Shown: positions 4,426-61,592 of the stretch, one piece after another
How positions within the stretch are numbered: position 1 is the stretch's first letter
How the letters are laid out: each line of letters begins with the position of its first letter
From: a virus
Taxonomy: Duplodnaviria > Heunggongvirae > Uroviricota > Caudoviricetes
Strand: one strand, 5' to 3'
Virus record (IMG/VR): IMGVR_UViG_3300033146_004404
Coordinates: 1-64,000 of that record
DNA: 64,000 nucleotides
Translations under genes and position numbers: made by a program
Notes under the pieces: model-generated
The model's input: the letters and a program-made list of their open reading frames with translations, nothing else
Database searches by the model: none
Told to the model about the DNA's origin: nothing

Positions 4426-4454
4426 TTGACAAAAAAAGAATAATATGTTATAAT
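4426..4454 (+). promoter_or_regulatory. consensus early promoter copy 1 (TTGACA-17-TGtTATAAT)
   Basis: cTTGACAaaaaaagaataatatgtTATAATtacatatg; precedes 4460. Confidence 0.7.
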
Positions 4455-4459
4455 TACAT

Positions 4460-4903
4460 ATGAAGAAGATAACAGAGATTATTCAATTAAAGGGAATGTC
4501 AGTAGAGGAGCTTGAAGACTTAGCCGCAGAGTTTTCAACTGCTTTAGCTAGTGCGGAAAAAGAAGCTATTAGAATACAGGATTCGATAGAAAGAACATCA
4601 GCTGCTACTTATATGTCAGAGCTTTACTTAAATGATTTGAGAGAATATATAGACGACGCTCTCTTCTTTATGACAGAACTTCAGCTTTTAACAATTTATG
4701 ATTCAATAACAAAAAAATTAGATGATAAAAAAATTAATTATAAAAAAGCTGAAAGCACAGAACTAGAGAATTCTTATGATACGAGCTATGAAAACGGCTA
4801 TTATGATGGTTTTAGCGATGGGAGGCAAGAAGCAGAAAACATTAAAAGAAATTTAAGAGATTTAAAAGATAAGCTTTCAGATGTCATACTAGGAATTGCT
4901 TGA
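4460..4903 (+). CDS. hypothetical coiled-coil protein
   Basis: First gene downstream of consensus promoter copy 1; charged, helical composition. Confidence 0.5.
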   Translation: MKKITEIIQLKGMSVEELEDLAAEFSTALASAEKEAIRIQDSIERTSAATYMSELYLNDLREYIDDALFFMTELQLLTIYDSITKKLDDKKINYKKAESTELENSYDTSYENGYYDGFSDGRQEAENIKRNLRDLKDKLSDVILGIA

Positions 4904-4928
4904 CAAAAAAAGAATAATATGGTATAAT
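4900..4928 (+). promoter_or_regulatory. consensus early promoter copy 2
   Basis: TTGACAaaaaaagaataatatggTATAATtaagtataa; precedes 4956. Confidence 0.75.
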
Positions 4929-4955
4929 TAAGTATAAAGAAAATAAGGGATAAAC

Positions 4956-5306
4956 ATGGCAGAAATTGAATTGAAAGGTGCTTTCTTAGACTCATTAAAG
5001 AGAAATAACGGACAAATAAAAGCAGCAAGAGCTGCAGCAATTGGTGAAGATACCGAAATTGCTTATCGCAGAAAAGTAGAGGATCTTGAAAGTAAAATTA
5101 AAAAAGTTAAAAGAAGAAGAGATAACATGCTTGATCTTTCACCGGAATCAACAGACAGTCTTATACTTGCAAAAGATTTTAAGGAAGATGAATTTGTAGC
5201 CGAAGATATTCGCCTTTCAAGTGAGCTTCGAAATCTTACAATCTCACTTGAAATTGCAAAAGGTAGATATGATTTTCTGTTCGGTTATACAGAAGGGAAT
5301 AAATAA
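4956..5306 (+). CDS. hypothetical protein
   Basis: Consensus promoter copy 2 plus an AAGGGA RBS. Confidence 0.5.
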   Translation: MAEIELKGAFLDSLKRNNGQIKAARAAAIGEDTEIAYRRKVEDLESKIKKVKRRRDNMLDLSPESTDSLILAKDFKEDEFVAEDIRLSSELRNLTISLEIAKGRYDFLFGYTEGNK

Positions 5307-6157
5307 TGGGAAGCGGAACTTATTCAGCAGACAGATCAGCAACAAGAGCTATGATGTATTCAAACAAGGATAGAGACGAGATCTTCGTCAAAAGATCTCA
5401 ATCCAATTTAATGAGACCTTTTGACGCAGTAAGAGAATGTGTTGATTCTCAAGAACACCCAAATACAATCCCAATAATTATAGCTCTGGACGAGACTGGA
5501 TCGATGGGGCATATCCCTGAAGCATTTGTAAGAGATGAGATGTCAAAAATGATGTCCGGACTTTATAGTGCAGGTCTTGGAGATTCACAAGTTCTCTTTA
5601 TGGGAATTGGTGATATTGAAACTGATAGAGCGCCTCTACAAGTTGGTCAGTTTGAAGCTGACGATGAGCTTATGGATAAGTGGCTTAAAGAGATTTATCT
5701 CGAAGGATGTGGAGGTGGAAATGACGGAGAGAGTTATTCCCTTGCTTGGGCATTTGCTGCAAGAGGAACTAAAATCGATTCCTTTGAAAAGAGAGGAAAA
5801 AAAGGTTATCTATTTACAATAGGTGATGAAAACGATCTTCCTTCAGTTAGCAATGGTGAACTGGCAACTCTTCTTGGAACTACTTCCGGAATTGAGAATT
5901 TGTCTGGTCTTACACCAGCTTCTACGTTACTTCAGGAAGCAAGTGAAAAGTATAACGTTTTTCACATCCATACAAAGGAAACAAGAAATGGTTCAAAAAC
6001 AAAAATTCAGGATAGCTGGAAACAGAATCTTGGAGAGAACGTTCTATTTGTAGATTCATACAAGGAAATCGCAAACCTGATAGCTGAAAAAGTTAATCAG
6101 TTTGAGAAAACTGAGCCAGTAGATGAGCCAGTAGTAAGTGAAATACAATTTCTTTGA
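5306..6157 (+). CDS. von Willebrand factor A (vWA) domain protein
   Basis: MIDAS-like motif 'IALDETGSMG' (DxTGS). Confidence 0.55.
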   Translation: MGSGTYSADRSATRAMMYSNKDRDEIFVKRSQSNLMRPFDAVRECVDSQEHPNTIPIIIALDETGSMGHIPEAFVRDEMSKMMSGLYSAGLGDSQVLFMGIGDIETDRAPLQVGQFEADDELMDKWLKEIYLEGCGGGNDGESYSLAWAFAARGTKIDSFEKRGKKGYLFTIGDENDLPSVSNGELATLLGTTSGIENLSGLTPASTLLQEASEKYNVFHIHTKETRNGSKTKIQDSWKQNLGENVLFVDSYKEIANLIAEKVNQFEKTEPVDEPVVSEIQFL

Positions 6158-6182
6158 CAAAAAAAGAATAATATGGTATAAT
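6154..6182 (+). promoter_or_regulatory. consensus early promoter copy 3
   Basis: Identical core; precedes the purA-like gene. Confidence 0.75.
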
Positions 6183-6209: not shown

Positions 6210-7334
6210 ATGAAAATAGCTGTAATTGGAATGGGTTTTGGAGACGAAGGCAAAGGTTTAGTTACAGACTATATTTGTAATAGTAGAAAAGTAGAATCTG
6301 TAACTAGATACTCTGGAGGACATCAGGCAGCACATTGTGTTGAAGAAGGAGATTTCAAACATATATTTTCCAACTTTGGATCAGGAACATATAGAGGTGT
6401 TCATACTAAATGGAAAGCAAAAACTTGTTATCCATTTAGTATCATGAATGAATATGAACTTTTAATTGATAAAATGCCGAAAGAAAAAATATCAATGACG
6501 ATAGATCCTGATACTCCTGTGACAACTCCATATGATATAGTAGCAAATTCTTTCAATAAGAGGAATATTAAAGATGGGTCTGTAGGGGTTGGTTTTGGAG
6601 AAACAATACAGAGAGAAGAAAACAACGTTCATCTTCACTTTAAGGATATTGCTTTTCCCGAAGTTTACGCAAAGAAAGTTTCTCTTGTAAAAGACTATTA
6701 CGAAAGAAAGATCGATCGTTCGATTGAAGCTCCTATAAGCCAGAAAGCATTTGACCTTTTTTTTACGGATAGCGAAAAAATTTATAAACTTTTCAGTGCT
6801 GAACCTAATATTGATCATAAACCAATAGAGTTGTTTGAAAGTTCACAGGGGCTTTTACTTGATATGGATTATGGATTTTTTCCTAATGTTACAAGATCAA
6901 GAGTTGGTATGCAAGAACTTGACTTTAATGATTCTTGTGATGAAGTTTTTTTAGTTACAAGAGCTTATCAAACAAGACATGGAAATGGATACTGTCAGGA
7001 TGAAGTTTTCTATCCTAATTATGGTGATAGGCCAGAAACAAATGTTACTGGAGAATTTCAGGGTGATTTCAAAACAAGGATTCTTGATCTTGATCTTTTG
7101 AAATATGCTATTGAATCAGATAAGTATTTGAGAAGTCGTGAAAATATAAATCTTGTTATTACTTGTCTTGACCATATAACTAACGGCAGTTATAGATATA
7201 TTGAAAAAGGTGAGCTTTATGAAACAAAGAAGATTTATGAGTTTATTGATAAGATCTGTGAGATAAAGCATTTCAATCAAGTATATGGAAGTTTTGGATC
7301 ATCAGCAGAAAATGTTAAATTGATCTACCGATAA
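6210..7334 (+). CDS. purA: adenylosuccinate synthetase-like protein (divergent, shortened PurA)
   Basis: N-terminal 'GMGFGDEGKG' P-loop (PurA GDEGKGK), 'YSGGHQAAH' (PurA GGHNAGH), and later 'TCLD' resembling the TKLD guanine-specificity motif. Confidence 0.6.
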   Translation: MKIAVIGMGFGDEGKGLVTDYICNSRKVESVTRYSGGHQAAHCVEEGDFKHIFSNFGSGTYRGVHTKWKAKTCYPFSIMNEYELLIDKMPKEKISMTIDPDTPVTTPYDIVANSFNKRNIKDGSVGVGFGETIQREENNVHLHFKDIAFPEVYAKKVSLVKDYYERKIDRSIEAPISQKAFDLFFTDSEKIYKLFSAEPNIDHKPIELFESSQGLLLDMDYGFFPNVTRSRVGMQELDFNDSCDEVFLVTRAYQTRHGNGYCQDEVFYPNYGDRPETNVTGEFQGDFKTRILDLDLLKYAIESDKYLRSRENINLVITCLDHITNGSYRYIEKGELYETKKIYEFIDKICEIKHFNQVYGSFGSSAENVKLIYR

Positions 7335-8426: not shown

Positions 8427-8455
8427 TTGACAAAAAAAGAATAATATGGTATAAT
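8427..8455 (+). promoter_or_regulatory. consensus early promoter copy 4
   Basis: Identical core; precedes 8485. Confidence 0.75.
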
Positions 8456-8484: not shown

Positions 8485-9072
8485 ATGGCGATGATAATGG
8501 CTGATTTTGATAATGTTTTTGTAGGTGCTGTGGTTTATCTTGGTGAAGAAAAACTTTATGTCTACAAAGTAAATAAGAAATCCTTATATGTTGGTTCTAC
8601 TCCTGAAGAAAAAATCAGCAAAAAATGGAATGAAATAAAAAGCAAAGCAGTAACTTGGGTAAAATACATGGAAAGAAATGGCGGAAAGAAACTGTCATTT
8701 GCTGGACTAAAGATTTCTTCAGAGGAAGCTGCAAAAAGAACTGGATTTATGGCAATAAAAGAAGCCAGAGAGTCTGGACGTGATTGGCTCGGAAAGAAAG
8801 GAAGAGAGATTGTTTCAATGCTTCTTAAAAGAGACAAAAAAGGAAAGAACTCTTTAATCTTTCCAAATGAATTTGGAACTCATACCCTTGTATTACTTGC
8901 AATTCATCCTGATAAAAACGGTCAGGTTCTCTTGAGAATAGATCAAACTTATTTCTTCTATGATGAAAAGACTGAATTGTATGATCGGTTTGATTCCTTA
9001 AAGGATAAAGACGGTAAAAATATAATTTGGCCAGATCGCATTCAGGTTGAAAACCTGGCATTAACAGTATAA
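8485..9072 (+). CDS. hypothetical protein
   Basis: Consensus promoter copy 4 plus an AGAGGAG RBS. Confidence 0.5.
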   Translation: MAMIMADFDNVFVGAVVYLGEEKLYVYKVNKKSLYVGSTPEEKISKKWNEIKSKAVTWVKYMERNGGKKLSFAGLKISSEEAAKRTGFMAIKEARESGRDWLGKKGREIVSMLLKRDKKGKNSLIFPNEFGTHTLVLLAIHPDKNGQVLLRIDQTYFFYDEKTELYDRFDSLKDKDGKNIIWPDRIQVENLALTV

Positions 9073-9280: not shown

Positions 9281-9336
9281 TTTTTTGAGAAAATAGAGGT
9301 TTTTTTTAATTCCTTGTGAAATTCTCAGAAGGGATT

Positions 9337-9365
9337 GACAAAGAAAGTAAAAAATGGTATGATCG
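9337..9365 (+). promoter_or_regulatory. variant promoter TTGACA-17-TATGAT
   Basis: gggaTTGACAaagaaagtaaaaaatggTATGATcgggg; a second -35-only copy of 'gggattgacaaagaaagtaaaa' at 9481-9502. Confidence 0.45.
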
Positions 9366-9917: not shown

Positions 9918-9981
9918 TTCGGATTTTGACAAAATGGAAATGTTTCACGTGAAACATCTGCATTGTGTCAAAATGATACAA
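9918..9981 (+). promoter_or_regulatory. 60-bp palindromic operator/promoter element, copy 1
   Basis: tttTGACAAAATGgaaATGTTTCACGTGAAACATctgCATTGTGTCAaaatgatacaaagg, with nested inverted repeats; directly upstream of the RBS of 9992. Confidence 0.5.
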
Positions 9982-9991
9982 AGGAGGTAAA

Positions 9992-10270
9992 ATGATAAAT
10001 CATTTTACTGCCGAGCGAGAGATCGCTCGGAATATCACTGCTGAAGAGGCGGCCATTTCTATGGCCGCCTCAAGGAATGAGATTTATGGGGTTCATGTGA
10101 GCCCCACGAAAAAGGCAAAAAAATGCCGAAATAAGAAACCTCAGCTTGAAATAGCTGAGGTTTCCATTGAGAGACTGGATCCTAACGGGATCCAGTTTCA
10201 GGATCGTCTTGCGTCTCTGAGGGCCAAAATAGCCCTCAGAGACGGAGTGGATTTGCGCTCAGTCAACTGA
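9992..10270 (+). CDS. hypothetical protein (GC-richer island)
   Basis: Strong RBS AAGGAGG; preceded by the 60-bp palindromic element. Confidence 0.45.
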   Translation: MINHFTAEREIARNITAEEAAISMAASRNEIYGVHVSPTKKAKKCRNKKPQLEIAEVSIERLDPNGIQFQDRLASLRAKIALRDGVDLRSVN

Positions 10271-10766: not shown

Positions 10767-10800
10767 TCAAAAATCAATAGCCCGTTTAGGGCTATTGATT

Positions 10801-10864
10801 TTGACAAAATGGAAATGTTTCACGTGAAACATCTGCATTGTGTCAAAATGATACAAAGGGGTGA
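10801..10864 (+). promoter_or_regulatory. 60-bp palindromic operator/promoter element, copy 2
   Basis: Near-identical copy upstream of 10868. A partial third copy (gacaaaatggaaatgttt) lies at 10944-10962 inside that ORF. Confidence 0.5.
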
Positions 10865-10867
10865 AAA

Positions 10868-11377
10868 ATGGCTGGAAAAAATGCCAAGCCAGTTCAAGAC
10901 TTAATGACCGCATTGCGGTTCGATAGTCTTGAGCTGAAATGCTTCGACAAAATGGAAATGTTTTCTCTATCAGGAATCTTAACGACTGATAGAGAAAAGG
11001 AAAAAGTGATCTATATGAATATGGATCACACGGAGACGAAAGAGCAAAAAGATATTGTATATATCTTTGCTCTTAATAACAAAATTCTGAAGGTTGGTTC
11101 AACAGGAACTAACCTCAGACAAAGACTTGCCAGTTACAATACTGGCAAGAAAAAATACGCTGATAGTGGAACATGTTCCACTACAAACTTTTTTGTTTTG
11201 CAAAGTTTGTTAAATATAAATGAACCGATTGCGGTTTATACATATTATCCTCCGAAAATGAAAATTGATGTTTTTGGTGAAGAACAGGAAGTTTCCTGTT
11301 CTAAGCTCTTTGAGAAAGCTATTCTAAAGAGCTTAAAGGACTCAGGTAATATGTCTATGTTCTGCACTCAGACATAA
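10868..11377 (+). CDS. GIY-YIG-like nuclease domain protein
   Basis: 'VYIFALNNKILKVGSTGTNLRQRLASY' resembles the GIY-x10-YIG ... R core. Preceded by the second copy of the 60-bp palindromic element. Confidence 0.45.
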   Translation: MAGKNAKPVQDLMTALRFDSLELKCFDKMEMFSLSGILTTDREKEKVIYMNMDHTETKEQKDIVYIFALNNKILKVGSTGTNLRQRLASYNTGKKKYADSGTCSTTNFFVLQSLLNINEPIAVYTYYPPKMKIDVFGEEQEVSCSKLFEKAILKSLKDSGNMSMFCTQT

Positions 11378-12665: not shown

Positions 12666-12925
12666 ATAAGGTAGTAAAGTATGTTAAAAGAAACTGTATA
12701 TATACTTATCAAAATTAAGGATACAAGAAGCTTAAATGAAATTCAACTATATAGTTGAATCTATATTCAGTTATATAAGTGACATTGAAAGAAAGCTTTT
12801 TATCTATATTGCAGATTTACAGAAGGTGAGAAAATTAATCAGAAGTATATGAAAATATAACAGGCTAGATTTTTATTCCGAAATTGTAAAGTTGCAAAAA
12901 AGGGTTTTTAAAGGAAGGAAACTAA

Positions 12926-13820: not shown

Positions 13821-13976
13821 ATGAAAGTAATAATAAAAGAAAGTGAAATAAAATATGCTCCTACATCGAAGTTAGTATATTTAAACGATGTTTTGTCCGG
13901 AAAAAATGAGTATGCAAACCTTAAAGAAAATATAAGGGCAGAGCTTAAAGAGAGAAAGAAGAAAAGACAATCTTGA
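13821..13976 (+). CDS. small hypothetical protein (51 aa)
   Basis: GAGGAGG RBS 6 nt before the ATG. Confidence 0.3.
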   Translation: MKVIIKESEIKYAPTSKLVYLNDVLSGKNEYANLKENIRAELKERKKKRQS

Positions 13977-14001
13977 CAGAAAAAGAATAATATTCTATAA
14001 T
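13973..14001 (+). promoter_or_regulatory. consensus early promoter copy 5 (spacer variant)
   Basis: TTGACAgaaaaagaataatattcTATAAT; precedes 14031. Confidence 0.65.
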
Positions 14002-14030: not shown

Positions 14031-14432
14031 ATGATAATTTTAAAGAAAGGATATACTCTGGAAGTTGTTTCATGGGAAAATGACGGAGATAATTATAACA
14101 CCAAAAGTTATACTTTTGATCTTGATAAAAAAGATGAAGCAATAGCTGTCTTACAGATGTGTAAGGATATTTTTGTTTCATGTAATAATGGAGATGGTGG
14201 AATCGGAAATAAGATGGTATTTCGTGACGACCAAAAAGAAATAATTCTTAAATATATGAAAAGCCATCCAGAGCTTTGCGGGAGCTATACGGAAGACGCA
14301 GATTTAATACAAATCTGTATTGAATGGAATTACACACTTCTTGGAAGCTCTGTTTTTTATGAGTTTCGTGTTTTTGAGAGTGGGGTAGTTCTTTATTCTC
14401 CTGAAGATATTGAAGTTGACCGTATAGCATAA
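14031..14432 (+). CDS. hypothetical protein
   Basis: Consensus promoter copy 5 plus RBS. Confidence 0.5.
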   Translation: MIILKKGYTLEVVSWENDGDNYNTKSYTFDLDKKDEAIAVLQMCKDIFVSCNNGDGGIGNKMVFRDDQKEIILKYMKSHPELCGSYTEDADLIQICIEWNYTLLGSSVFYEFRVFESGVVLYSPEDIEVDRIA

Positions 14433-14448: not shown

Positions 14449-15678
14449 ATGAAATATGAAAAAATAAGAGAGAAGCTTGAAAACTTAAACAGCAACAGGA
14501 ATCACTATCAAATATCAAACGATGTTTGTACTCCGATGTCATTAGTGGAAATAATGGTATCTAAAATTCCAAAAGGTTTCTGGAAAAAAAAGGATGTTCG
14601 TGTATTAGACCCGTGTGCCGGTAATGGAAATTTTCCGGCCTATATAGAAGAAAGATTCAGACAAAACAAAAATGACAGCTATGAAATTGTAGCTAATGAG
14701 ATCAATCCTTTTCGGATTGAAAACTTAAAAAAGATACTTCCAGATATAACAGTATCAGAACGGGGTTTTTTAAGTTTTCCGGATGATGAGAAATATGATT
14801 TAATTATTGCAAATCCACCTTACGCTCAATTTACAGAGAGTGGGGGAAGGGCAGCAAAAAATCATAATATGTCAAGGAGTTTTGTAAGAAAATCATTAAC
14901 TTTGCTTAATGATAATGGTTATCTTGTGTATATTATTCCTGATAATTGGATGTCACTTTCTGACAGAAATGACATTGTAAAGTTATTAAGCGAGTATCAA
15001 TTTTTATACCTTGACATTCATAACGCAAAAAAATACTTTCCTAATGTTGGAAGTAGCTTTACATGGTTTTGTTTAAGAAAATCTGAAAACAAAACTCCTG
15101 TAATTATTAACAATGGTTATAAATGGAAGCTAGTGGACTTTTGTCCTATTGATAAAGGATCTGAAAACATTCCTTTGTTTTATACAAGAGAGGTCAGATC
15201 TATTGTAAATAAAACTCTTAATGCTGATTGTAAAAGAATCGAAGTCGAGACAACATCAGACTTACATAAATACACTAAAAAGGATATGTTTGGAGAACGA
15301 AGTTCCGATTTTAAATATAAAATATGGCATACCCAGAATCAGGTAGTATGGAGTAAAAGAGAGCATAAGTTCCAGAATGGATGGAAAGTTTTTATATCAT
15401 TAACTTCCTACTACTCAACATTTATTGAGGAAAATTCTGGAATGACTCAAAGTATAGGTTTTGTTTTGTGTAATAGTGAAAATGAAGCAAAGGAAATAAA
15501 AAAGATTTTAGATCATCCTTTGTATGTTTTCTTGAATAATATTCATAGATACGGAAATTTTAATAATGTGAGAATATTGCAGAAGTTTCCTTATCCTGAT
15601 GATGTTGATGATATATATGGAAATTTTAATATAACAGACTCCGAGAAGCAATTAGCTTTGAACTTTTTGAAAACTTGA
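14449..15678 (+). CDS. N6-adenine DNA methyltransferase (gamma-type motif order)
   Basis: Motif I 'VLDPCAGNGNF' followed by motif IV 'IIANPPYAQF'. Confidence 0.8.
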   Translation: MKYEKIREKLENLNSNRNHYQISNDVCTPMSLVEIMVSKIPKGFWKKKDVRVLDPCAGNGNFPAYIEERFRQNKNDSYEIVANEINPFRIENLKKILPDITVSERGFLSFPDDEKYDLIIANPPYAQFTESGGRAAKNHNMSRSFVRKSLTLLNDNGYLVYIIPDNWMSLSDRNDIVKLLSEYQFLYLDIHNAKKYFPNVGSSFTWFCLRKSENKTPVIINNGYKWKLVDFCPIDKGSENIPLFYTREVRSIVNKTLNADCKRIEVETTSDLHKYTKKDMFGERSSDFKYKIWHTQNQVVWSKREHKFQNGWKVFISLTSYYSTFIEENSGMTQSIGFVLCNSENEAKEIKKILDHPLYVFLNNIHRYGNFNNVRILQKFPYPDDVDDIYGNFNITDSEKQLALNFLKT

Positions 15679-15703
15679 CAAAAAAAGAATAATATGCTAT
15701 AAT
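15675..15703 (+). promoter_or_regulatory. consensus early promoter copy 6
   Basis: TTGACAaaaaaagaataatatgcTATAAT; precedes 15735. Confidence 0.75.
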
Positions 15704-15734: not shown

Positions 15735-16115
15735 ATGGATTTTACAAAAATGTCAGTAGAAGAGATTGAAGATGTTATTTCAGGTGCAAAGTCAGCACTC
15801 GTTGACGCAAAAGCAGAAGTAAAACTCTTAAAAGCAGAAGAGAAGAAAGATCGACATGATCTTTTTAAAGCTTCACTTCAGGTAGGCGATAAAGTAACGT
15901 TTCTCTATGGTTCAAAAAATGAAACCAAAGAAGGAACAATTGTAAGAGTTTCTGATAAGACAGTTACTGTCGGGTCAGATGCCTTCTCAAAAGGTTCTGG
16001 ATATGTTCGTTTTGATCGCTTTATTGAGATAGTAGAAACTGCAGAAGTAGAAGTAGAAGCAGAAGTAGAAGCAGAAGCAGAAGCAGAAGCAGAAGCAGAA
16101 GCAGAAGCAGTATAA
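15735..16115 (+). CDS. hypothetical protein with C-terminal (EA)n tail
   Basis: Ends 'EVEVEAEVEAEAEAEAEAEAEAEAV', encoded by GAAGCA/GAAGTA repeats. Confidence 0.5.
   Translation: MDFTKMSVEEIEDVISGAKSALVDAKAEVKLLKAEEKKDRHDLFKASLQVGDKVTFLYGSKNETKEGTIVRVSDKTVTVGSDAFSKGSGYVRFDRFIEIVETAEVEVEAEVEAEAEAEAEAEAEAV
16040..16110 (+). repeat. GAAGCA/GAAGTA hexanucleotide tandem repeat encoding an (EA/EV)n tail
   Basis: gcagaagtagaagtagaagcagaagtagaagcagaagcagaagcagaagcagaagcagaagcag. Confidence 0.8.
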
Positions 16116-16281: not shown

Positions 16282-16779
16282 ATGAGAGTAAAGACATTTA
16301 TTTTTTTTCTGTTTTTTAGTATTTCAGTGATTGCAGCAAAAGACTTTCGTTTGATAATAATCGAAAATTGTATAAAACATGAAGTACCTTACGTTGTAGG
16401 GTTCACTGTGGCCATGACTGAATCAGATATTAGAATGGACATAGAAGAAGAACTAAATCACAATGGAACATATGACATAGGGATATTTCAATTAAATAGT
16501 TATTACATCGGCTGGTTTGAAGAGAAGTATTGGAAAGAGCTTGAAAGCTTTAATCCGTACAATCCAGAACATAATATTGAAATGGGAATAATGTATTTAT
16601 CAGACTTGAGAAAGAGGTTTGAATCATGGGAATTGGCTATTCGTGCTTATAACGTAGGGCCAACAACTGTTTGGAATAACAGAGAAGCTGGGTCTTATTA
16701 TTATGGGAAATATTTGAAGAATGTTAAGAAAGTTGACATAAAAAGAATAATATGCTATAATTATAGTATAAGGAGATAG
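16282..16779 (+). CDS. secreted lytic transglycosylase / lysozyme-like protein
   Basis: N-terminal signal-like 'MRVKTFIFFLFFSISVIAA'; 'MTESDIRMD...GTYDIGIFQLNS' resembles the SLT catalytic Glu-Ser ... GLMQ region. Confidence 0.4.
   Translation: MRVKTFIFFLFFSISVIAAKDFRLIIIENCIKHEVPYVVGFTVAMTESDIRMDIEEELNHNGTYDIGIFQLNSYYIGWFEEKYWKELESFNPYNPEHNIEMGIMYLSDLRKRFESWELAIRAYNVGPTTVWNNREAGSYYYGKYLKNVKKVDIKRIICYNYSIRR
16743..16771 (+). promoter_or_regulatory. consensus early promoter copy 7
   Basis: TTGACAtaaaaagaataatatgcTATAAT, embedded in the 3' coding end of 16282-16779. Confidence 0.65.
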
Positions 16780-16780: not shown

Positions 16781-16990
16781 ATGATATTTTTAATGTGGAG
16801 ATTATATATTGCTTATAATTCTGTAAAGCGTCAGGGTTACAAAATGGTAAATAGTAAGCAAATTAGAGAGAAGATTTCACTGGCAATGAATCCTTACTTT
16901 GGTATTTTAGCACAGGACTTTTATAAAAGCTCAATTTACTTCAGTTTTGCAATTGAATTATCAATGCTCTGGATGACGTTTTTTGTTTGA
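16781..16990 (+). CDS. small membrane protein
   Basis: Hydrophobic ORF downstream of promoter copy 7. Confidence 0.35.
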   Translation: MIFLMWRLYIAYNSVKRQGYKMVNSKQIREKISLAMNPYFGILAQDFYKSSIYFSFAIELSMLWMTFFV

Positions 16991-17015
16991 CGAAAAAAGA
17001 ATAATGTGGTATAAT
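16987..17015 (+). promoter_or_regulatory. consensus early promoter copy 8 (TTGACG variant)
   Basis: TTGACGaaaaaagaataatgtggTATAAT; precedes the cca head gene. Confidence 0.65.
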
Positions 17016-17035: not shown

Positions 17036-17779
17036 ATGAGTTTTGAAAAAGCAAAAAGAATCGCACAGATTCTACAAGATAACGGATTCAAAGCTGTCTT
17101 TGCTGGCGGTGCTGTTCGGGATATGGTTCTTGGCGTCGAGCCACATGATTTCGATGTGGCAACTTCAGCAAGACCTGAAGATGTTAAAAGAATTTTTATC
17201 AACTCTAGTTTTGTAGGCGAAAGTTTTGGTGTATCACTTGTTGAAGGCATTGAAGTCGCATCATTTAGAATTGATAAAAGTCAGGTTGATGGTAGAAAAC
17301 CAAACAGTATTGAATTTGCTTCAATGGAAGAGGATTCAAAACGCAGAGACCTGACAATCAATGCTCTGTTCTGGGATCCGATTAGTGAAGAATTCTTTGA
17401 CTTTGTTGGTGGAATGAAAGACATCGAAGAAAAAATAATAAGATTTGTTGGTGATCCAATTAAAAGAATAGAAGAAGATAACTTGAGAATAATGAGAGCT
17501 ATCAGATTTGCTCATAAGTTGAACTTTACTCTTAGCAAGAGTACTACTCTTGCGATTGTTAATAATGCTGAAAAAGTAAAGAGTCTGTCAGGTGATAGAA
17601 TTCTTGAAGAACTAAAGAAGGGTATTGTCTTAGATAAACCTTCTAAGTTTATTTCTCTCTTGTTTTCACTTGGTATTTTGAGACATATTCTTCCTGAAAT
17701 AACTGATCTTTCAGGTTGCGAACAACATATAAAATGGCACCCAGAAGGTGCAACAGCTCAAAAGATTATTTGTGACTAA
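17036..17779 (+). CDS. cca: tRNA nucleotidyltransferase (CCA-adding enzyme), N-terminal head/neck fragment
   Basis: 'GGAVRDMVLGVEPHDFDVAT' class-II nucleotidyltransferase signature and 'RRDLTINAL'. Ends '...WHPEG' followed by a short tail, then stop. Confidence 0.75.
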   Translation: MSFEKAKRIAQILQDNGFKAVFAGGAVRDMVLGVEPHDFDVATSARPEDVKRIFINSSFVGESFGVSLVEGIEVASFRIDKSQVDGRKPNSIEFASMEEDSKRRDLTINALFWDPISEEFFDFVGGMKDIEEKIIRFVGDPIKRIEEDNLRIMRAIRFAHKLNFTLSKSTTLAIVNNAEKVKSLSGDRILEELKKGIVLDKPSKFISLLFSLGILRHILPEITDLSGCEQHIKWHPEGATAQKIICD

Positions 17780-17840
17780 ATATCTGCAAAACAAAAAGTT
17801 GGCGTTGGAAAAATGCTTAACTTTTTTAACGGAGGACTGA

Positions 17841-18512
17841 GTGAAACTAGGAGAAAAAATTCCTTTAGATCCAAAAAATAAAGATCATTACGATAAAACA
17901 AAATATAAAATAACTCCAGGTGACGTTTTTGTTCATACAATGAAGGTTTTGGATAACATCGAATCAAAAGATTGGCGTGTTAGACTTGCTGCTTTATTTC
18001 ACGACATTGGCAAACCTGCAACTGCTGTTGATAAAGGTGAAGGTCGAATTTCAAACAAAGGTCATGATAAAGAAGGCGCAAAGATGGTTTTTGAAATTGG
18101 TAAAAGATTGTCTATGTCAAATGAAAACATTGCCTTAATTTCAAATCTAGTTAAGGATCATATGAACTTTAAAGAAGTTAAGAATATGAAAAGATCAACT
18201 CTTAGACGTTTTCTTTCTAAACCTCATATTGTTGAACTAATCGAACTTTCCAAAGCTGATAGTCTTGGTACTGATTTTGAGCACGATATGTCATTCATTG
18301 ACTTTGCAAAAAATCAGTTGAAAAATTTTGACGATTTGAATGAACCTGTTATGCCAGATCCTTTTGTTGATGGTCATGATTTGATTGCTATGGGCTTCAA
18401 GCCTAGTCCAAAATTTAAAGTTATGTTGGATAAAGTTATGGATTTGCAATTGGAAAATAAAATCAACAGTAAAGAAGAAGGAATCGATTTCATCGTAAAA
18501 AAATTTATTTGA
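17841..18512 (+). CDS. cca: CCA-adding enzyme C-terminal HD-domain fragment
   Basis: GTG start with GGAGGA RBS; 'PGDVFVHT' and 'LFHDIGKP' HD motifs. Continues the HPEG|DVxxHT motif that is split from the upstream ORF. Confidence 0.7.
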   Translation: MKLGEKIPLDPKNKDHYDKTKYKITPGDVFVHTMKVLDNIESKDWRVRLAALFHDIGKPATAVDKGEGRISNKGHDKEGAKMVFEIGKRLSMSNENIALISNLVKDHMNFKEVKNMKRSTLRRFLSKPHIVELIELSKADSLGTDFEHDMSFIDFAKNQLKNFDDLNEPVMPDPFVDGHDLIAMGFKPSPKFKVMLDKVMDLQLENKINSKEEGIDFIVKKFI

Positions 18513-55850: not shown

Positions 55851-55879
55851 TTGACAAAAAAAGAATAATATACTATAAT
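55851..55879 (+). promoter_or_regulatory. consensus early promoter copy 24
   Basis: TTGACAaaaaaagaataatatacTATAAT; precedes the M23 peptidase, marking the boundary with the minus-strand structural module. Confidence 0.7.
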
Positions 55880-55897: not shown

Positions 55898-56731
55898 ATG
55901 AAAAATGTATTAATATATCTCTTGCTTGTATCTACAGTATTACTAAGTTTTATGCTGTATCAAACAACTGAGAGAAAATATGAGGTTGAAAATAAATACG
56001 AAAAGACTTTAGATGAAATAAAAATGGAAATCATAAAGAACAGCTCTCTTGAATTAGTCATCGATAATCTTAACAGCGAGATCACTTTAAACAAAATTCA
56101 GTATACGAGCACAATAAAAGAAATAGTTGAAGTAGTTCAAATCACAGACTCGTACCTTTTTATAGGTGGTTTTAGCGAAGAAGATACTGACGATTTTAAC
56201 TTAAAAAAGTATGAAGATATGCTAACTTTAAACACAAGTCTTTCAGAGTTATTGCATAACACGGAAAACTTTTTCGACGAGAGAGTTAAGTACATCGAAA
56301 AAACTCCAAGTGTCTGGCCAATAGAGAATATAGATGACATAAGAATATCTTCTCCGTTTGGAGATAGATATTCTCCATTTTCTGGAAAGAAAACTTTTCA
56401 CAATGGGATTGATCTTGTAGCTCCAGCTTATACAAAAATAAAAGCTACTGCGGAAGGAGTTGTTGTTCAAAACTGGATCATGCACCCAATATATGGAAAG
56501 CTTGTGATTGTAGAACATGCTAACGGAATAAGAACTTGGTATGCTCACATGTCAAAAGTTTGGGTTCACGAAGGGGATAGAATCAAAAAAGGTGCGTCCA
56601 TTGGAAGAATTGGAAATACTGGAGTTTCTACAGGAAGACATTTACATTATTCAGTAGAAAGAAATGGAAAATTTGTAGACCCAACAGAGTATCTAAGATA
56701 CAAGCAAGAAATCTTGACAAAAAAAGAATAA
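55898..56731 (+). CDS. M23-family (LytM-like) peptidase with N-terminal TM anchor
   Basis: 'HNGIDL', 'GNTGVSTGRHLHY' motifs; the 3' end overlaps promoter copy 25. Confidence 0.8.
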   Translation: MKNVLIYLLLVSTVLLSFMLYQTTERKYEVENKYEKTLDEIKMEIIKNSSLELVIDNLNSEITLNKIQYTSTIKEIVEVVQITDSYLFIGGFSEEDTDDFNLKKYEDMLTLNTSLSELLHNTENFFDERVKYIEKTPSVWPIENIDDIRISSPFGDRYSPFSGKKTFHNGIDLVAPAYTKIKATAEGVVVQNWIMHPIYGKLVIVEHANGIRTWYAHMSKVWVHEGDRIKKGASIGRIGNTGVSTGRHLHYSVERNGKFVDPTEYLRYKQEILTKKE

Positions 56732-56742
56732 TATGGTATAAT
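56714..56742 (+). promoter_or_regulatory. consensus early promoter copy 25
   Basis: Identical core overlapping the M23 3' end; precedes the AAA ATPase. Confidence 0.75.
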
Positions 56743-56771: not shown

Positions 56772-58220
56772 ATGAAAGAATACTCAAAGCTTTATTATGA
56801 GCTACATAAACACGTAGGCTCAAATTTTGACAATGCTGCTATGAACAAGAAAATTATCAATAAGCTTTCTGAGAAGAAAGTCTACTCTTATCAAGATATG
56901 ACTTATGAATTAAATAGAGCAATCAGATTAACAGAAAAAGAACTTTACATAGACAACACAAAACACTCTCTATTTATCTATGGAGAAACAGGAACAGGAA
57001 AGACGGAAATAATAAAACAGGTCTGTGAGGCAAACAGTTGTGTTTATCACAAGCTTGAAATACAGAAAATTCCGATTGAAGAACTTCAGGGATTCCCGTA
57101 TCTTTATAAAAACAAAGATGAAAAGACGGTTGTAAGACTTGCTCCATCAACAATTCTTCCTCCAAGTGAAGATGATAGAGTTTGGGTTCTTCACTTTGAC
57201 GAGTTCAACAAAGCCGATACAGAATCAATGGCTGCTGTAATGAATCTTATTCTTAATGGAGAAATTGGAGGTTCTGCTGATTATAACGAAGAGACAGGAA
57301 AATCTGAAAAGTATTCTCTACCTAAGAGAACTGTTGTTATTGGTTCTGGCAATAGAAAAATACAAAAGAATGTTTCATCATTTAATGCTGTAAATAATTT
57401 TGATACAGCAACAGCAGAAAGATGGCATAGGAATATTTACATTGGATACAATGCTCCTTCTTGGTTATCAGCATTTGCTTTTAAACCTTTCATTTGGAAA
57501 GAAATGAAACTTCATACAAGAGTTCCATCTATTATTTGTTATTATATTTTTAACAAATATATGGAAGAAGGAAGTGTTGAAGCTCCTTTTCTCATTCCAA
57601 AGAAGAACAGTGATGATGATGAAGGTGATTCAACAATGTCACCAAGAGCTTGGACTCTTCTTTCAAACAACATGATTTACACAATGTATTTCTGGTGGAA
57701 TGAATTTACAGATCACACTCCAAAAAATGATTTTGATTCTTTTGCAGATTATTGTTCTGATCCAAATGTTCAAATTGAAGCTCTTATAGAGAACGTCGCT
57801 GAACTTGGAATCGAAAATGGTGTTGATGTAGCAAAAGATATAATTGGAAAATATGTTTACTTCGCTGAAAATAGAGTTCTTCCAGAAGACGTTCTATTTG
57901 ACTATGTTAATGTAAGACAGAAAATAAAAAATCTTTCTGAGAAGAAAGGTGCTATGCTATTCTTACTTCTTTCAATAGCTCATTCAGTAAATGACGTTAA
58001 AGAGTGGGAAATGGAAGTTAGAGTTCCAGCTTTAAATCTGTCAACATTTCTAACGGATGTTGACATTCCAGCTGAAGATATTACTGTTTTTATCTACGAA
58101 CTTGATAAAATCAAGACAGAAGCAGCAAAAGAATTGGGAGAATTTCTTTATAGCATAAATGATAGATATAAGAATGCTTATCAAGGATTCTATTATACAA
58201 GCGATAAAGAACTAAAATGA
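56772..58220 (+). CDS. AAA+ ATPase (MoxR/CobS-like)
   Basis: Walker A 'GETGTGKT', Walker B 'VLHFDEFNKA'. Confidence 0.65.
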   Translation: MKEYSKLYYELHKHVGSNFDNAAMNKKIINKLSEKKVYSYQDMTYELNRAIRLTEKELYIDNTKHSLFIYGETGTGKTEIIKQVCEANSCVYHKLEIQKIPIEELQGFPYLYKNKDEKTVVRLAPSTILPPSEDDRVWVLHFDEFNKADTESMAAVMNLILNGEIGGSADYNEETGKSEKYSLPKRTVVIGSGNRKIQKNVSSFNAVNNFDTATAERWHRNIYIGYNAPSWLSAFAFKPFIWKEMKLHTRVPSIICYYIFNKYMEEGSVEAPFLIPKKNSDDDEGDSTMSPRAWTLLSNNMIYTMYFWWNEFTDHTPKNDFDSFADYCSDPNVQIEALIENVAELGIENGVDVAKDIIGKYVYFAENRVLPEDVLFDYVNVRQKIKNLSEKKGAMLFLLLSIAHSVNDVKEWEMEVRVPALNLSTFLTDVDIPAEDITVFIYELDKIKTEAAKELGEFLYSINDRYKNAYQGFYYTSDKELK

Positions 58221-58441: not shown

Positions 58442-59224
58442 ATGGCGGATAAATTTACGTACGAACAAACAGATTGGAAAGTTCCGATAGAACAATCCTT
58501 ATTAACAAATACAGAAATCGACAATGGCTCATTAAGATTATATTTAATTTTATTGAGTTATGCTAGAAATAAAATCACAGCATTTCCATCAAGAGATACA
58601 TTAGCAAAAGATATGGGGTGTAGCGTTAGAAATGTTGATATTTTAAAGAACAAATTAAAAGCACATGGCTTATTATCTTGGGAAACAAAATTTTACGGAC
58701 AGAAGAAGCACAACACTTATACATTACTAAAGTATAAACCAATAACTTCTTCATATAAAGAGAAAAAAAGTTCTTCTCCACAGAGAAAGAAACTTCTCAT
58801 TAATAATACAAATAGTAATAATAAAACTACTAGTAGTGATTTTAAAAAAGTAATTAAGAGTTTCATGAAATCATACAGAGATACTTGTGAGAACATTGAT
58901 CCTGATATAAAGAGAAACATACAGTCAGGATGGATTAACAATAAAAATTACATAGTAACTAATGGTGACAGGAAAAACTTAGCACAGTATCTTCAGGAAA
59001 ACGGTGAAGATGGAATTGAGAAAATTGACATCAGTTTTAAATTTCTTAAATCTTATCTTGAAGATAGACTGGAGTATGGACAGTTTTATAACAGTGATGG
59101 TTCAGAATTAATTCCATCCATCAGCTTATTTCTTAAGTCAAAGATACAACATGATGCAATGATGGAATTTACAAAGCACAGATTAAGAGTAATAACAAAA
59201 GAGCTAGAAAGAGATGAAAGTTGA
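58442..59224 (+). CDS. winged-helix DNA-binding protein (replication-initiator / DnaD-like?)
   Basis: N-terminal 'LRLYLILLSYARNKITAFPSRDTLAKDMGCSVRNV' HTH-like segment. Confidence 0.35.
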   Translation: MADKFTYEQTDWKVPIEQSLLTNTEIDNGSLRLYLILLSYARNKITAFPSRDTLAKDMGCSVRNVDILKNKLKAHGLLSWETKFYGQKKHNTYTLLKYKPITSSYKEKKSSSPQRKKLLINNTNSNNKTTSSDFKKVIKSFMKSYRDTCENIDPDIKRNIQSGWINNKNYIVTNGDRKNLAQYLQENGEDGIEKIDISFKFLKSYLEDRLEYGQFYNSDGSELIPSISLFLKSKIQHDAMMEFTKHRLRVITKELERDES

Positions 59225-59255
59225 TAGTGGAATAATTTAGATATACAGAGCCAGA

Positions 59256-59621
59256 ATGGAAAGCAAGGGAGAAGGTAAGTTGAAAGAGTTTAAGATAATA
59301 AATAACGTACTTAATTACAGAAAAAATGGAGAAAATTGGATTCCATTTTCTATTGAAGAGTTATCTACAATTTTAGCGGATAAAGTTGTAAGCCAGCAAA
59401 TGATAAACGAGGCTTACTTAGAATCCGTTAAAAAACTTTTAGTTCCTTTAGTGAATTCCATATCACAACCTACTGATATGAGATATGACTTAGCTAAGTC
59501 GGTACTGAGTGAATTAATAACAAAGCAAGACAAAGATAGTGTTTACAGCACTATCGAACATTCTTTTGAATATGCTGATGCTTTTATAAAAAAATACAAA
59601 AGAGAAAACAAAAACATGTAG
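59256..59621 (+). CDS. hypothetical protein
   Basis: ORF. Confidence 0.45.
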   Translation: MESKGEGKLKEFKIINNVLNYRKNGENWIPFSIEELSTILADKVVSQQMINEAYLESVKKLLVPLVNSISQPTDMRYDLAKSVLSELITKQDKDSVYSTIEHSFEYADAFIKKYKRENKNM

Positions 59622-59658
59622 TTAATGGCTTTATCAACAATGTTATAAGGGAGAGTTA

Positions 59659-61398
59659 ATGAGAGAAATGAAAAAAAATTTTTTAGACAAAGGCTGGGTT
59701 TGCTTAGTTGATAAAATGGGAGACGACTATAGAATTTTACAGTCAGCAAGAGTTTCTACAGGTGGAGAAGCTTCAAAGGGAGATAAAGCAGATAGAGGAT
59801 TGATTCGATATTTGTATAAAAATAAACATTGCTATGACGATAAAACAGAGATTATGACAGAAAAAGGATTTATTTTATTTAAAGAGTTGAAAGATGAAAA
59901 AGTGGCCACTTTTTCAACAGACTCTTCAAAGTTTTTAAGGTATGAAACACCAAAAGAAAAAATAATTGATAACTACAGCGGAGAAATGTATCATTTTGAC
60001 GGAGATGTTGATTTATGCGTATCTCCAAACCATAAAATTTATTTTAGGAAAGCAAGAGATAAGAAATCAACATATCATTTTGATTTTGCTGCAGGAGAGG
60101 ATTCTTACAATAACCCTAAGAAGATAAAGAATGCTGAAGCACACATAAAAATGAAAAAATCTTCTTCTGGGAGTATTGTTAACTTTAAAGAAAGAGAAAT
60201 GTTTGGAATGGACATAATAAACTTTTCAAAGATTATAGGGTTTTTCATTGGAGAAGGGAACTCTAATTCAAAAAACACTATTGGGTTTCATCTAAAGAAA
60301 AAAAGAAAAATAAAATTTTTAAAAGATATAACGCTAAACTCTAATGTTGAATTAAGAAAATTAAAGAATGATGTTTATATATTTGATTTTCTTAATATAA
60401 AAGAATGGATTGATGAAAACTGCTATGATGAAAATAGAAATAAAAAGATTCCAGAGTTTTATTTCTATGAAAGCAGCATGGTTATTGATGCTCTCTTTGA
60501 AGGATTAAGGAATTCAAATGGATCTAACAAAAGAAGCACTTGGATATATTCTACAACCTCAAAAAAATTAGCTAATCAGTTACAAGCTATAGGTTCCATA
60601 AATGGAAGAACTATAACGCTAAATAGTTCAAGTGATTATTTATATATATTAAATTTTTCCACAAGAAGAGTTGAGGCAAATGTGAATGATAGTAGAGGAG
60701 GAAGTAATTTAAACATTATAAACTATACTGGAAATATATATTCAGTTACAGTTTCTACAGGTTTAATTATGGTTAGAAGAAATAGAAAAATAGTTCTTTC
60801 TGGAAATTCAACACCTTTCGAACAAGTAGTGTTTACGTTTCATTGTAAGATACCAAACTTTGTGGCAACTCATCTTTTACGTCATAGAACTTTTTCATTT
60901 AATATGATTTCACAGAGATATAGTCAAATTAAAGATGATTACTATATCCCTAAAGAGTGGAGAGCTCAGGGAATAACTAATCACCAAGGAAGCGGAGAGA
61001 AATTCGAAAGCGATGAAAACATTCGTTTGCAGAATGAATACGTTAACGAAATAGAAAATTCGTTTTTAAACTATAATGAAATGATAGAAACAAAAGTAGC
61101 AAAAGAAATGGCTAGATTGGTTCTACCTTCTTCAGTATATACAGAGTTATATTTTACTGTAGATTATCGAAATCTTTTACATTTTCTTGAATTAAGACTT
61201 CACGAACATGCGCAATTTGAGACAAGGGTTTTTGCTGAAGCAATAGAGTCTATATTAAATGAAATAGATGGATTAAAATGGTCAATGGAAATCTTCAAAG
61301 AAGACACAGAGCTTCAGTGGAAGATTCAAAAACTTCTTTCCTCAAAGAAAGAACCGGCAACAATACTAAAAGCTCTTGAAGAAGCTTTTGGAATATAG
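59659..61398 (+). CDS. thyX: flavin-dependent thymidylate synthase ThyX, interrupted by an intein
   Basis: Exteins: 'DKGWVCLVDKMGDDYRILQSARVS...RGLIRYLYKNKH' and 'STPFEQVVFTFHCKIPNFVATHLLRHRTFSFNMISQRYS' (ThyX RHRx7S motif). Between KH and STPFEQ lies an insert of about 326 aa starting with Cys and ending in Asn. Confidence 0.8.
   Translation: MREMKKNFLDKGWVCLVDKMGDDYRILQSARVSTGGEASKGDKADRGLIRYLYKNKHCYDDKTEIMTEKGFILFKELKDEKVATFSTDSSKFLRYETPKEKIIDNYSGEMYHFDGDVDLCVSPNHKIYFRKARDKKSTYHFDFAAGEDSYNNPKKIKNAEAHIKMKKSSSGSIVNFKEREMFGMDIINFSKIIGFFIGEGNSNSKNTIGFHLKKKRKIKFLKDITLNSNVELRKLKNDVYIFDFLNIKEWIDENCYDENRNKKIPEFYFYESSMVIDALFEGLRNSNGSNKRSTWIYSTTSKKLANQLQAIGSINGRTITLNSSSDYLYILNFSTRRVEANVNDSRGGSNLNIINYTGNIYSVTVSTGLIMVRRNRKIVLSGNSTPFEQVVFTFHCKIPNFVATHLLRHRTFSFNMISQRYSQIKDDYYIPKEWRAQGITNHQGSGEKFESDENIRLQNEYVNEIENSFLNYNEMIETKVAKEMARLVLPSSVYTELYFTVDYRNLLHFLELRLHEHAQFETRVFAEAIESILNEIDGLKWSMEIFKEDTELQWKIQKLLSSKKEPATILKALEEAFGI
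59830..60807 (+). mobile_element. intein with LAGLIDADG homing-endonuclease domain inside thyX
   Basis: Begins 'CYDDKTEIMT' and ends '...VLSGN' before +1 Ser. Internal 'KIIGFFIGEGNS' and 'IDALFEGLRNSNGS' LAGLIDADG-like motifs. Confidence 0.65.
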
Positions 61399-61563
61399 GA
61401 GAAAATTATGTCAGCAACGGAATTAGCGTTTATTTTAATAATGGGCGGAACAGCTTTTTACTTGATGAACAGGTGGTGGTAGATGATAAGTGTTGGCTCA
61501 GCAATCACTGCAATTATTTTTTCTTTTATAGTTGCTTGGGTAATTTTAAAGATCTTTAAAAAT

Positions 61564-61592
61564 TTGACAAAAAAAGAATAATATGGTATAAT
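61564..61592 (+). promoter_or_regulatory. consensus early promoter copy 26
   Basis: Identical core; precedes the metallopeptidase-vWA gene. Confidence 0.75.

Follow-up and report, generated by a model that had tools for sequence, protein, structure and literature searches.

Near-identical, probable early promoters with an invariant spacer block in a distant T4-like phage

The spacer sequence of sigma-70 promoters is usually treated as nearly free, and promoters of T7-type phage polymerases have about 23 conserved bp. In B. subtilis-type sigma-A promoters a -16 'TRTG' motif was reportedly described by Voskuil and Chambliss in 1998. The early promoters of phage T4 are very strong promoters of the UP/-35/TGn/-10 type with additional consensus regions (PMC2988021). 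Promoter(early) stem-loop elements (PeSLs) are repeated consensus promoters that extend from a stop codon to a Shine-Dalgarno (SD) sequence and ATG (PMC2839356, PMC4122927). Here we describe a repeated promoter-like element in a 64,000-nucleotide stretch of phage DNA (positions 1 to 64,000 of IMG/VR record IMGVR_UViG_3300033146_004404; below, the window). Its copies are probably early promoters of a distant T4-like phage that would be read by the host RNA polymerase (RNAP) with sigma-A/sigma-70 and that carry an extra, invariant element in the spacer. Promoter function itself is of an already known kind, the T4-type early promoter; what is new is the invariant spacer block.

A mismatch search of the window with the 29-nt core TTGACAAAAAAAGAATAATATGGTATAAT revealed 26 copies with 0-3 mismatches, all on the plus strand (the first at 4426-4454, the last at 61564-61592), and 0 copies on the minus strand, with 0.00 matches expected in shuffled sequence. 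The number of copies, their divergence and their coordinates agree with the first-pass annotation of this DNA. The same annotation had described near-identity over a whole 40 bp, which did not hold: the full 42-mer including the leader gave only 17 matches at ≤3 mismatches, all on the plus strand (0.00 in shuffles). The '40-bp' unit is a 29-nt core followed by a looser, SD-bearing leader. Its information content rises abruptly at the first T of TTGACA, from 0-0.6 bits on the 5' side, stays at its maximum up to and including the -10 box and then decays gradually across the leader of about 13 nt. Since there is no conservation 5' of the -35 box, there is no conserved UP element, which had been named earlier as one possibility. 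What the copies have in common in the leader is chiefly an SD placed at a constant short distance past the -10 box, and within this genome the leader has become uniform.

The spacer is 17 nt long in all copies, and the two hexamers match the consensus at 12/12 positions in 25 of the 26 copies and at 11/12 in the remaining one. As a correction to the perfect sigma70 anatomy reported before, TGn ahead of the -10 box is present in 24/26 copies and lacking at 13973 and 55851. A consensus scan of the window for TTGACA-17-TATAAT found 25 matches at 12/12, every one a member of the family, while weaker promoter-like matches stayed at background level. A profile hidden Markov model (HMM) trained on 183 family copies returned exactly the same 26 sites, with no degenerate further copies in the window; as there were no intermediate scores, the family is all-or-none. 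The spacer 12-mer AAAAAGAATAAT occurs 25 times in the window, 25/25 inside promoter copies, and no stand-alone AAAAAGAATAAT sites away from promoter hexamers were found there. A full-text literature search for the motif string returned nothing relevant.

Pattern scans of viral and metagenome collections gave about ten related contigs with multiple copies, at least one of them from IMG metagenome 3300035698, an Ace Lake (Antarctica) co-assembly (PMC8542988). These contigs keep the gene order and the same promoter at orthologous positions, and they carry large open reading frames (ORFs) that resemble T4 gp46, UvsW, UvsX, major capsid protein and prohead protease (judged by eye, with no family search). 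One of them, the 54.8-kb contig G131, rebuilt from overlapping pieces, is collinear with the window over 16-63 kb at a protein identity of 29-78% and shares at least 13 orthologous promoter positions with it. Within these orthologous pairs positions 1-19 of the element are 98% identical, while the 30 nt upstream are 35% identical, compared with 30% in non-orthologous pairs. Such near-identity next to randomised flanks reflects purifying selection on the spacer.

The same picture was obtained for 93 sites in relatives picked solely by their hexamers (TTGACA-N17-TANAAT): 92 of them contain the spacer block AAAAAAGAATAAT at ≤2 mismatches, and positions 9-19 are at least 98% conserved. Positions 20-23 (including TGn) and the leader vary in relatives, the preferred form differing by genome, and upstream of the -35 box the only trends are a slight A/T preference at -6 to -3 and a C at -1. 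Because positions 20-23 drift between lineages and the block stays constant, gene conversion alone is insufficient as an explanation. Judged from these alignments, the part selected family-wide comprises the two hexamers and the 13 spacer bases that follow the -35 box. Purifying selection holds this spacer block as strongly as it holds the hexamers, and the block is not a product of recent copying. The earlier suggestion of selection beyond the hexamers thus stands for positions 1-19 and fails for the whole 40 bp. The consensus early promoters in the first 50 kb of phage RB49 have unrelated spacers. Identity at the variable positions is 63% among paralogous copies of the window, versus 52% for orthologous pairs, which suggests that the within-window uniformity of ATGN and of the leader TAAGTATAAGGA comes from concerted evolution or from lineage-specific selection.

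The block is intact in copies 8427 and 55851, which are divergent from minus-strand genes, and in copies 20033 and 32886, located just past terminators. As copies outside read-through RNA keep the block, a function at the DNA level is enough and a role in RNA is unnecessary. Some relatives contain hyperplastic stretches (L012 1-4100, L034 2100-7600, L009 and L033) with a copy every 80-400 bp in front of ORFs of 29-127 aa; some of these copy pairs are 76-87 nt apart and have a common local variant (CTTG + TAAAAT), suggesting tandem duplication of cassettes. A search for unrelated phage types carrying the motif found none, the largest ORFs of the motif contigs all being T4-type by eye. Outside phages, the 19-mer block followed by N4-TATAAT was found once each in three independent loci of Clostridia metagenome-assembled genomes (MAGs) from Ruminococcus, Eubacteriales and Oscillospiraceae (L006 6886-6914; L007 5367-5395, the same locus as in L004 and L026; L005 294-322), where it precedes a tRNA, a lipoprotein gene and a prepilin-like gene; the Eubacteriales locus recurs on a second contig. 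By a rough estimate this number is near chance, so it does not identify the host, though the matches could hint at an intrinsically strong Firmicute promoter.

The window, with a GC content of about 33%, is part of a large, distant T4-like myovirus, as follows from a Gp23-family capsid protein (Pfam Gp23, 1.4e-30) that also matches solved T4 gp23 structures and from a tail sheath protein matching a PHROG family. The capsid protein is identical on a 201-kb contig from JGI, and no close relative was found among GenBank phages (virion block by megablast, 815-aa protein by tblastn). Looking up window proteins by exact match in the contig index gave no hit. The window encodes 21 tRNAs and a transfer-messenger RNA (tmRNA), these being the only Rfam matches at gathering thresholds, and many RNA-repair and nucleotide-metabolism genes (Pfam).

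The minus-strand virion block at 47.6-55.8 kb does not contain a single promoter copy. Instead, we found a candidate late motif GTAAAGATAATATAG, with GTAAAG(A/G)TA followed by (A)ATATAG, 25-55 nt ahead of virion start codons. On the minus strand it is located at 8415, 49618, 50452, 52251 and 55806, upstream of the gp23-like, sheath, 203-aa, 264-aa and 815-aa ORFs; on the plus strand it is located at 1140, upstream of ORF 1182-2672. The motif is kept ahead of the orthologous genes in G131, L011, L021, L034 and L035, and the T4 late motif TATAAATA is not enriched in the window (12 matches versus 9.5 expected). Virion genes that lack the early element and have a conserved motif of their own support a separate class of late promoters, as had been proposed from the absence of copies in this module.

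All copies share the orientation of their genes (coding strand). In most of them 18-36 nt separate the -10 box from the start codon, which has an AAGGAG-like sequence before it; longer untranslated stretches follow 4 copies. These distances and the orientation are promoter-like, in line with the earlier statement that copies precede protein genes, tRNAs and a structured leader. That they drive almost every plus-strand gene is a reading of this layout and goes beyond the counts: the 26 copies stand against about 75 plus-strand ORFs and 22 tRNA/tmRNA genes, and with a copy about every 1.7 kb promoter-free plus-strand stretches still reach 4.8 kb.

The 3' ends of upstream ORFs are overlapped by 11 copies. 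In seven cases the TGA inside TTGACA is the stop of the upstream ORF; the thioredoxin gene (ORF 42614-42895; Pfam Thioredoxin, 1.2e-20), for which the first-pass annotation had noticed this, is joined by six others. Three more ORFs end in ...LT(K/E)KE* within TTGACAAAAAAAGAATAA, at the TAA of GAATAA, in agreement with the ...LTKKE* ends noted before, and one upstream ORF reads through a whole copy. Read from its sequence, the element has a stop codon in all three frames, so upstream ORFs can run in and terminate there.

It should be mentioned that a general upstream stem-loop, the criterion for PeSLs, was not found across the 26 copies. The folding energy of the 50 nt upstream averages -6.65 kcal/mol, compared with -6.64 kcal/mol in random control windows (p = 0.76); a terminator-like hairpin precedes three copies and a tRNA two, a hairpin is present in only 5/26, and the invariant A-rich spacer is unable to form a stem. 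The leaders that follow copies 36898 and 42892 fold no better than shuffles (z = -1.0 and -0.7), and relaxed Rfam scans downstream of 9335 and in leaders 36898, 40339 and 42892 gave nothing credible.

According to the mechanism that we favor, the copies are most likely recognised by the host housekeeping sigma-A/sigma-70 holoenzyme. Each cassette combines the -35 box TTGACA, a 17-nt spacer, a TRTG-type extended -10 with TATAAT and a very short leader, which sets the SD (AAGGAG/GGGG) a few bases past the predicted start site, and the cassettes would fire into units of 1-6 genes, tRNA groups or leaders. The 13 spacer bases by the -35 box (AAAAAAGAATAAT, about -29 to -17) form a family-specific, base-specific element beyond the ordinary need of sigma-70, with host RNAP contacts (sigma or beta'), DNA shape (A-tract) and a phage factor as candidate readers; sigma-70 of E. 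coli can sense spacer sequence near -18 (PMC3130263). We infer promoter function from the anatomy of the element, while selection on the spacer comes out of the comparison itself; likewise, we infer the early class from gene content (nucleotide metabolism, tRNA, RNA repair) together with the absence of copies from virion genes.

Several points weigh against this reading. Ordinary sigma-70 promoters tolerate almost any spacer. Such invariance, together with all-or-none copies, is more typical of promoters served by a dedicated factor or polymerase, and a host-only mechanism is therefore perhaps incomplete. Both 'early' and 'host RNAP' are interpretations of sequence, and the part of the genome examined is 64 kb of about 201 kb. 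In addition, the pattern used to retrieve the relatives' loci itself includes the block, so one copy per locus is ascertained; this does not affect the many further copies in each locus or the orthologous-pair comparison. A bolder version, possible though doubtful in our opinion, is that the -29 to -17 block is a new kind of promoter element, read base-specifically by a dedicated phage protein or through an unusual host RNAP contact, with T7-like all-or-none specificity and possibly serving as one on/off handle for the early genes.

If the block were bound by a phage-encoded protein needed for initiation or strongly boosting it, the copies would constitute a private promoter class, which we consider somewhat unlikely. 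Injected or made very early, such a protein might act as an activator, as a specificity subunit attached to RNAP or as a phage sigma, giving T7-like specificity despite the host-consensus core. About 25 positions invariant across diverged genomes would fit this idea, as would the lack of a degenerate continuum of copies, the asymmetry of a block that spans about one helical turn and is never found apart from the hexamers, and the consensus promoters of RB49, which have no such spacer; moreover, T4 injects Alt, a factor favouring its early promoters (PMC2988021). However, the consensus -35, 17-nt spacing and -10 already suffice for strong recognition by the host. No sigma, anti-sigma, transcription factor or ADP-ribosyltransferase was found among the window proteins scanned (about 50 Pfam, about 30 PHROGs; many small ORFs are without assignment), and the only helix-turn-helix protein found in the scans (58442-59224) looks like a replication initiator. 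The 19-mer with TATAAT in the three Clostridia MAG loci would also fit an intrinsically strong bacterial promoter, with the reservation that their number is near chance. The bound protein might act in the opposite sense, as a middle or late repressor that shuts off all early promoters by occupying the block as its operator, with the hexamers alone giving activity. The conservation of the spacer (92/93 sites; 98% over positions 1-19) and its placement where a bound protein would block RNAP agree with this, and the T4 early shut-off mechanism is still unresolved (PMC2988021), so that an operator would fill a known gap. We regard it as quite improbable nevertheless: loss of a single operator should be only mildly harmful and operator-less promoters are expected, but they were seen in 1/93 sites in relatives and 0/25 in the window, where neither stand-alone sites nor, among the proteins scanned, a candidate repressor was found.

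Uniformity might also be produced mainly by recombination that moves promoter-gene modules as PeSL-type mobile cassettes and by subsequent gene conversion. The PeSLs of RB49/phi1 are repeated consensus sigma-70 promoters ending in an SD and a start codon that flank ORFans and recombine into mini-circles (PMC2839356, PMC4122927). The hyperplastic stretches of L012, L034 and L009 resemble this situation; the content downstream of orthologous promoters differs between phages (e.g., at 18509, 21909, 25698 and 40339), several breaks in gene order fall at copies, the tmRNA is inserted right ahead of promoter 32886, and the variable positions are more alike within the genome than between orthologs. 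However, homogenisation cannot explain the same 19 bases being fixed in every lineage while positions 20-23 drift, and the stem-loop component is missing (p = 0.76; hairpin in 5/26). Some indels and rearrangements relative to G131 have no promoter nearby (e.g., 33.3-35.7 kb and 43-47.6 kb), variable segments often have their right-hand border away from any promoter, and with promoters about every 1.7 kb an association with breakpoints is weak evidence. As the main cause of the uniformity we therefore find this mechanism unlikely. The copies probably do double as recombination substrates, which fits the comparisons, but the element works like a T4-type early promoter cassette and not like a strict PeSL. 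Least probable, and hardly credible to us, is a dispersed selfish repeat (resembling miniature inverted-repeat transposable elements or repetitive extragenic palindromes) or an RNA-level element such as an RNase site that merely looks like a promoter. High copy number and near-identical sequence are what such elements would show, and the A/U-rich sequence would be present in read-through RNAs. Yet the unit is asymmetric, without terminal inverted repeats or target duplications; all copies point one way relative to the genes and keep a constant register to SD/start codons as well as to tRNA 5' ends; its positions are orthologous despite flanks saturated with changes; and the block is intact in 8427 and 55851, which have no upstream plus-strand transcription. 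On these grounds the dispersed mobile repeat, named in the first-pass annotation as the outcome that would speak against promoters, is rejected.

All individual copies are given below by the plus-strand coordinates of their cores. The first one (4426-4454, one mismatch) lies after hairpins 4308-4327 and 4387-4411, and ORF 4460-4903 begins just 5 nt past its -10 box, meaning that this gene is leaderless or that a later start codon is used. The TGA stop of this ORF is held by the TTGACA of the next copy (4900-4928, no mismatches), which stands before ORF 4956-5306. Copy 6154-6182 (no mismatches) overlaps the TGA stop of ORF 5306-6157 and precedes an adenylosuccinate-synthetase-like gene (6210-7334); an inverted repeat of its -10 region lies just 3' of it. 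Copy 8427-8455, again without mismatches, precedes ORF 8485-9072 and is back to back with the late-type motif 8415 (minus strand) ahead of the gp23-like gene. A relaxed copy had been reported at 9337. The sigma-A-like site TTGACA-17-TATGAT, with TGn, does exist on the plus strand but starts at 9335 (9335-9363), has 5/29 mismatches and is followed by no ORF within the next 400 nt; being undetected by the family profile, it is of doubtful membership.

Copy 13973-14001 (3 mismatches, without TGn) precedes ORF 14031-14432, and copy 15675-15703 overlaps the TGA stop of a DNA methyltransferase gene (14449-15678) before ORF 15735-16115. Located inside the 3' end of an SLT transglycosylase ORF (16282-16779), copy 16733-16761 precedes ORF 16781-16990, whose TGA stop is in turn overlapped by copy 16987-17015, a TTGACG variant standing before a CCA-adding/poly(A)-polymerase-family gene (17036-17779) and having an orthologous copy in G131. 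Orthologs in G131 were also found for copy 18509-18537, which overlaps the TGA stop of an HD-domain gene (17841-18512) and precedes ORF 18574-18798, and for copy 21909-21937, located after the RtcB gene and before ORF 21956-22171. Between these two, copy 20033-20061 lies 22 nt past a terminator-like hairpin (19990-20011) and before ORF 20082-20432 and RtcB (20563-21855).

A further group is associated with tRNA genes. Copy 22868-22896 precedes a 40-aa ORF and tRNA-Gln (23049-23119), and 20 nt downstream of copy 24415-24443 starts tRNA-Asp (24464-24539). Copy 25698-25726, an exact 42-mer, stands before ORF 25745-25924 and a tRNA Thr/Phe/Ala/Met array; its orthologs in G131, L028 and L031 have a different downstream content. 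Copy 27976-28004 precedes ORF 28023-28220, tRNA-Arg and tRNA-Glu, and copy 40652-40680 is 20 nt ahead of tRNA-Leu (40701-40777) and a tRNA Trp/Leu/Leu group. Copy 30889-30917, with orthologs in L001, L014 and L020/G131, lies between the genes for phosphoribosyl pyrophosphate (PRPP) synthetase (29934-30887) and an Rnl2-type RNA ligase (30937-31890). Copy 32886-32914 is located 8 nt past the strong terminator (32849-32878) that follows the tmRNA, and before an ORF ending at 33218 and a radical-SAM gene. The tmRNA itself (32523-32810; Rfam, 72.9 bits; tag peptide DETETYYAQVA), forms with the strong terminator next to it an insertion that sits precisely between ORF 32321-32521 and promoter 32886. 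The related contigs compared yielded no tmRNA, and in L001 and G131 the orthologous ORF lies immediately next to the promoter.

Copy 36172-36200 overlaps the end of ORF 35671-36189 (...LTEKE*), precedes an HNH endonuclease gene (36259-36894) and has orthologs in G131 and L001. Copy 36898-36926 is followed by a 104-nt leader, the 5' part of which (GACACGAACAGCAA) is kept in the same two contigs, and by a DUF2828/DUF7788 gene (37031-38503); copy 39145-39173 stands before a metallophosphoesterase gene (39193-39912) and has an ortholog in G131. Copy 40339-40367 overlaps the end of a cREC_REC gene (39934-40356; ...LTKKE*). Downstream of it, at 40373-40562, comes a structured RNA of about 180 nt (minimum free energy -47.4 kcal/mol, z = -4.6), closed by a terminator (40519-40553) with a 16-bp hairpin and a U-run. 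This RNA could be a small RNA or the source of a 20-aa peptide (MVFNALLSLSLLSSWSNQLR), and it is not conserved after the orthologous promoter in L027. Copy 42892-42920, with orthologs in G131 and L030, holds in its TTGACA the TGA stop of the thioredoxin gene and is followed by a 113-nt leader and ORF 43034-44566. Beyond the virion module, copy 55851-55879, without TGn and divergent from this module, stands before an M23 peptidase gene (55898-56731) and has orthologs in G131, L011 and L022; copy 56714-56742 overlaps the end of that ORF (...LTKKE*) and precedes an ATPase gene (56772-58220). The last copy (61564-61592) precedes ORF 61613-63205 and has an ortholog in G131.

Besides the promoters, the window revealed several other features. 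Its RNA repair/translation toolkit is unusually rich, spanning 17036-21855, 27004-27408, 28405-28833, 30937-31890 and 39934-40356 and including, besides the 21 tRNAs and the tmRNA, a CCA-adding/poly(A)-polymerase-family enzyme, an HD phosphohydrolase, RtcB ligase, PTH2, a YqeY-like protein, an Rnl2-type RNA ligase and a cyclic-phosphate-processing receiver domain protein. The tRNA at 27434-27508 (also in L001, about 12793-12866) has a CTA anticodon, i.e. is an amber suppressor, is labelled 'Pyl' by ARAGORN and adjoins the gene for the peptidyl-tRNA hydrolase PTH2. Recoding of TAG, raised by this tRNA, was rejected: of 60 long ORFs, six use TAG as a normal stop, and with the virion ORFs intact nothing points to recoding across the genome. 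A motif (G)GCAC/GACAC-N-AACAGCAATCAAAA was found at 23123-23148, 26001-26026, 26295-26320 and 36932-36955, three times just past a tRNA and once at the 5' end of the DUF2828/DUF7788 leader, and this last occurrence is kept in G131 and L001; the motif may serve as a signal in RNA processing or recognition. The DUF2828/DUF7788 gene is near the RtcB, Rnl2 and CCA-adding-enzyme genes. DUF2828 proteins, as we presume, may be Ro60-like, and a Y-RNA-like partner is conceivable.

Two copies of a 71-nt element, 96% identical, are present at 9922-9992 and 10797-10867. Each contains a long imperfect inverted repeat (TTTTGACAAAATGGAAATGTTTCAC/GTGAAACATCTGCATTGTGTCAAAA) extending into an SD, that of ORF 9992-10270 in one case and that of the GIY-YIG ORF 10868-11377 in the other. 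Judging by analogy, the element may be a hairpin hiding the ribosome-binding site; such hairpins have been reported for T4 homing endonuclease genes. At 34575-36189 four tandem paralogous ORFs have a common N-terminus MKKRIGFVSNSSSSSF; their number varies, L001 lacking most of them and G131 having homologues of two. Finally, (GCAGAA)n repeats at 16034-16115 and 47520-47580 encode the (AE)n C-terminal tails of ORFs 15735-16115 and 46177-47580.

Thirteen spacer bases that remain constant at more than 150 sites amid randomised flanks amount to a natural saturation experiment, according to which these bases matter. If the host polymerase reads the spacer, the block would show which spacer is optimal in a host that is uncultured, low in GC and probably Gram-positive-like, and would offer a ready-made, very strong part comprising a promoter and a ribosome-binding site. 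If a phage factor reads it, T4-like phages would have a new way of taking over transcription or of shutting off their early genes. In addition, the repeats may show at which points this phage group can exchange modules.

Comparison with known systems revealed that the element is similar to the T4 early promoters in being present in tens of copies in the early and tRNA regions of a T4-like genome, in the excellent matches of its -35, TGn and -10 parts, in having a consensus that extends beyond the hexamers and in leaving the late virion genes to a separate promoter class. It differs from them in that the A/T-rich UP element is not conserved in this phage, in that a contiguous 13-nt block of the spacer is invariant, not statistical, at 29-78% protein identity, and in the late motif, which is GTAAAGATAATATAG here and TATAAATA in T4. 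With the PeSLs of RB49/phi1, T4/PST and KVP40/nt-1 it shares repeated near-consensus sigma-70 promoters ending in an SD and a start codon, dense occurrence before small ORFans in hyperplastic regions, as seen in relatives, and a plausible use as sites of homologous recombination. In contrast to PeSLs, most copies here are without a stem-loop or terminator and the spacer is invariant, while PeSL spacers vary and often contain the stem-loop, those of RB49 that were compared being mutually unrelated. The window consensus ...AATATGGTATAAT fits TRTG-n-TATAAT of Gram-positive promoters, with TTGACA at 17 nt and a strong AAGGAG ribosome-binding site, although TRTG is not conserved in the related phages. 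Finally, invariance, all-or-none occurrence, a single orientation, asymmetry and tens of copies per genome are also features of T7-type promoters and of mycobacteriophage stoperators; unlike them, however, the element has perfect host-type -35 and -10 boxes, its block never occurs apart from the hexamers, and neither a phage RNAP nor a repressor was found in the window.

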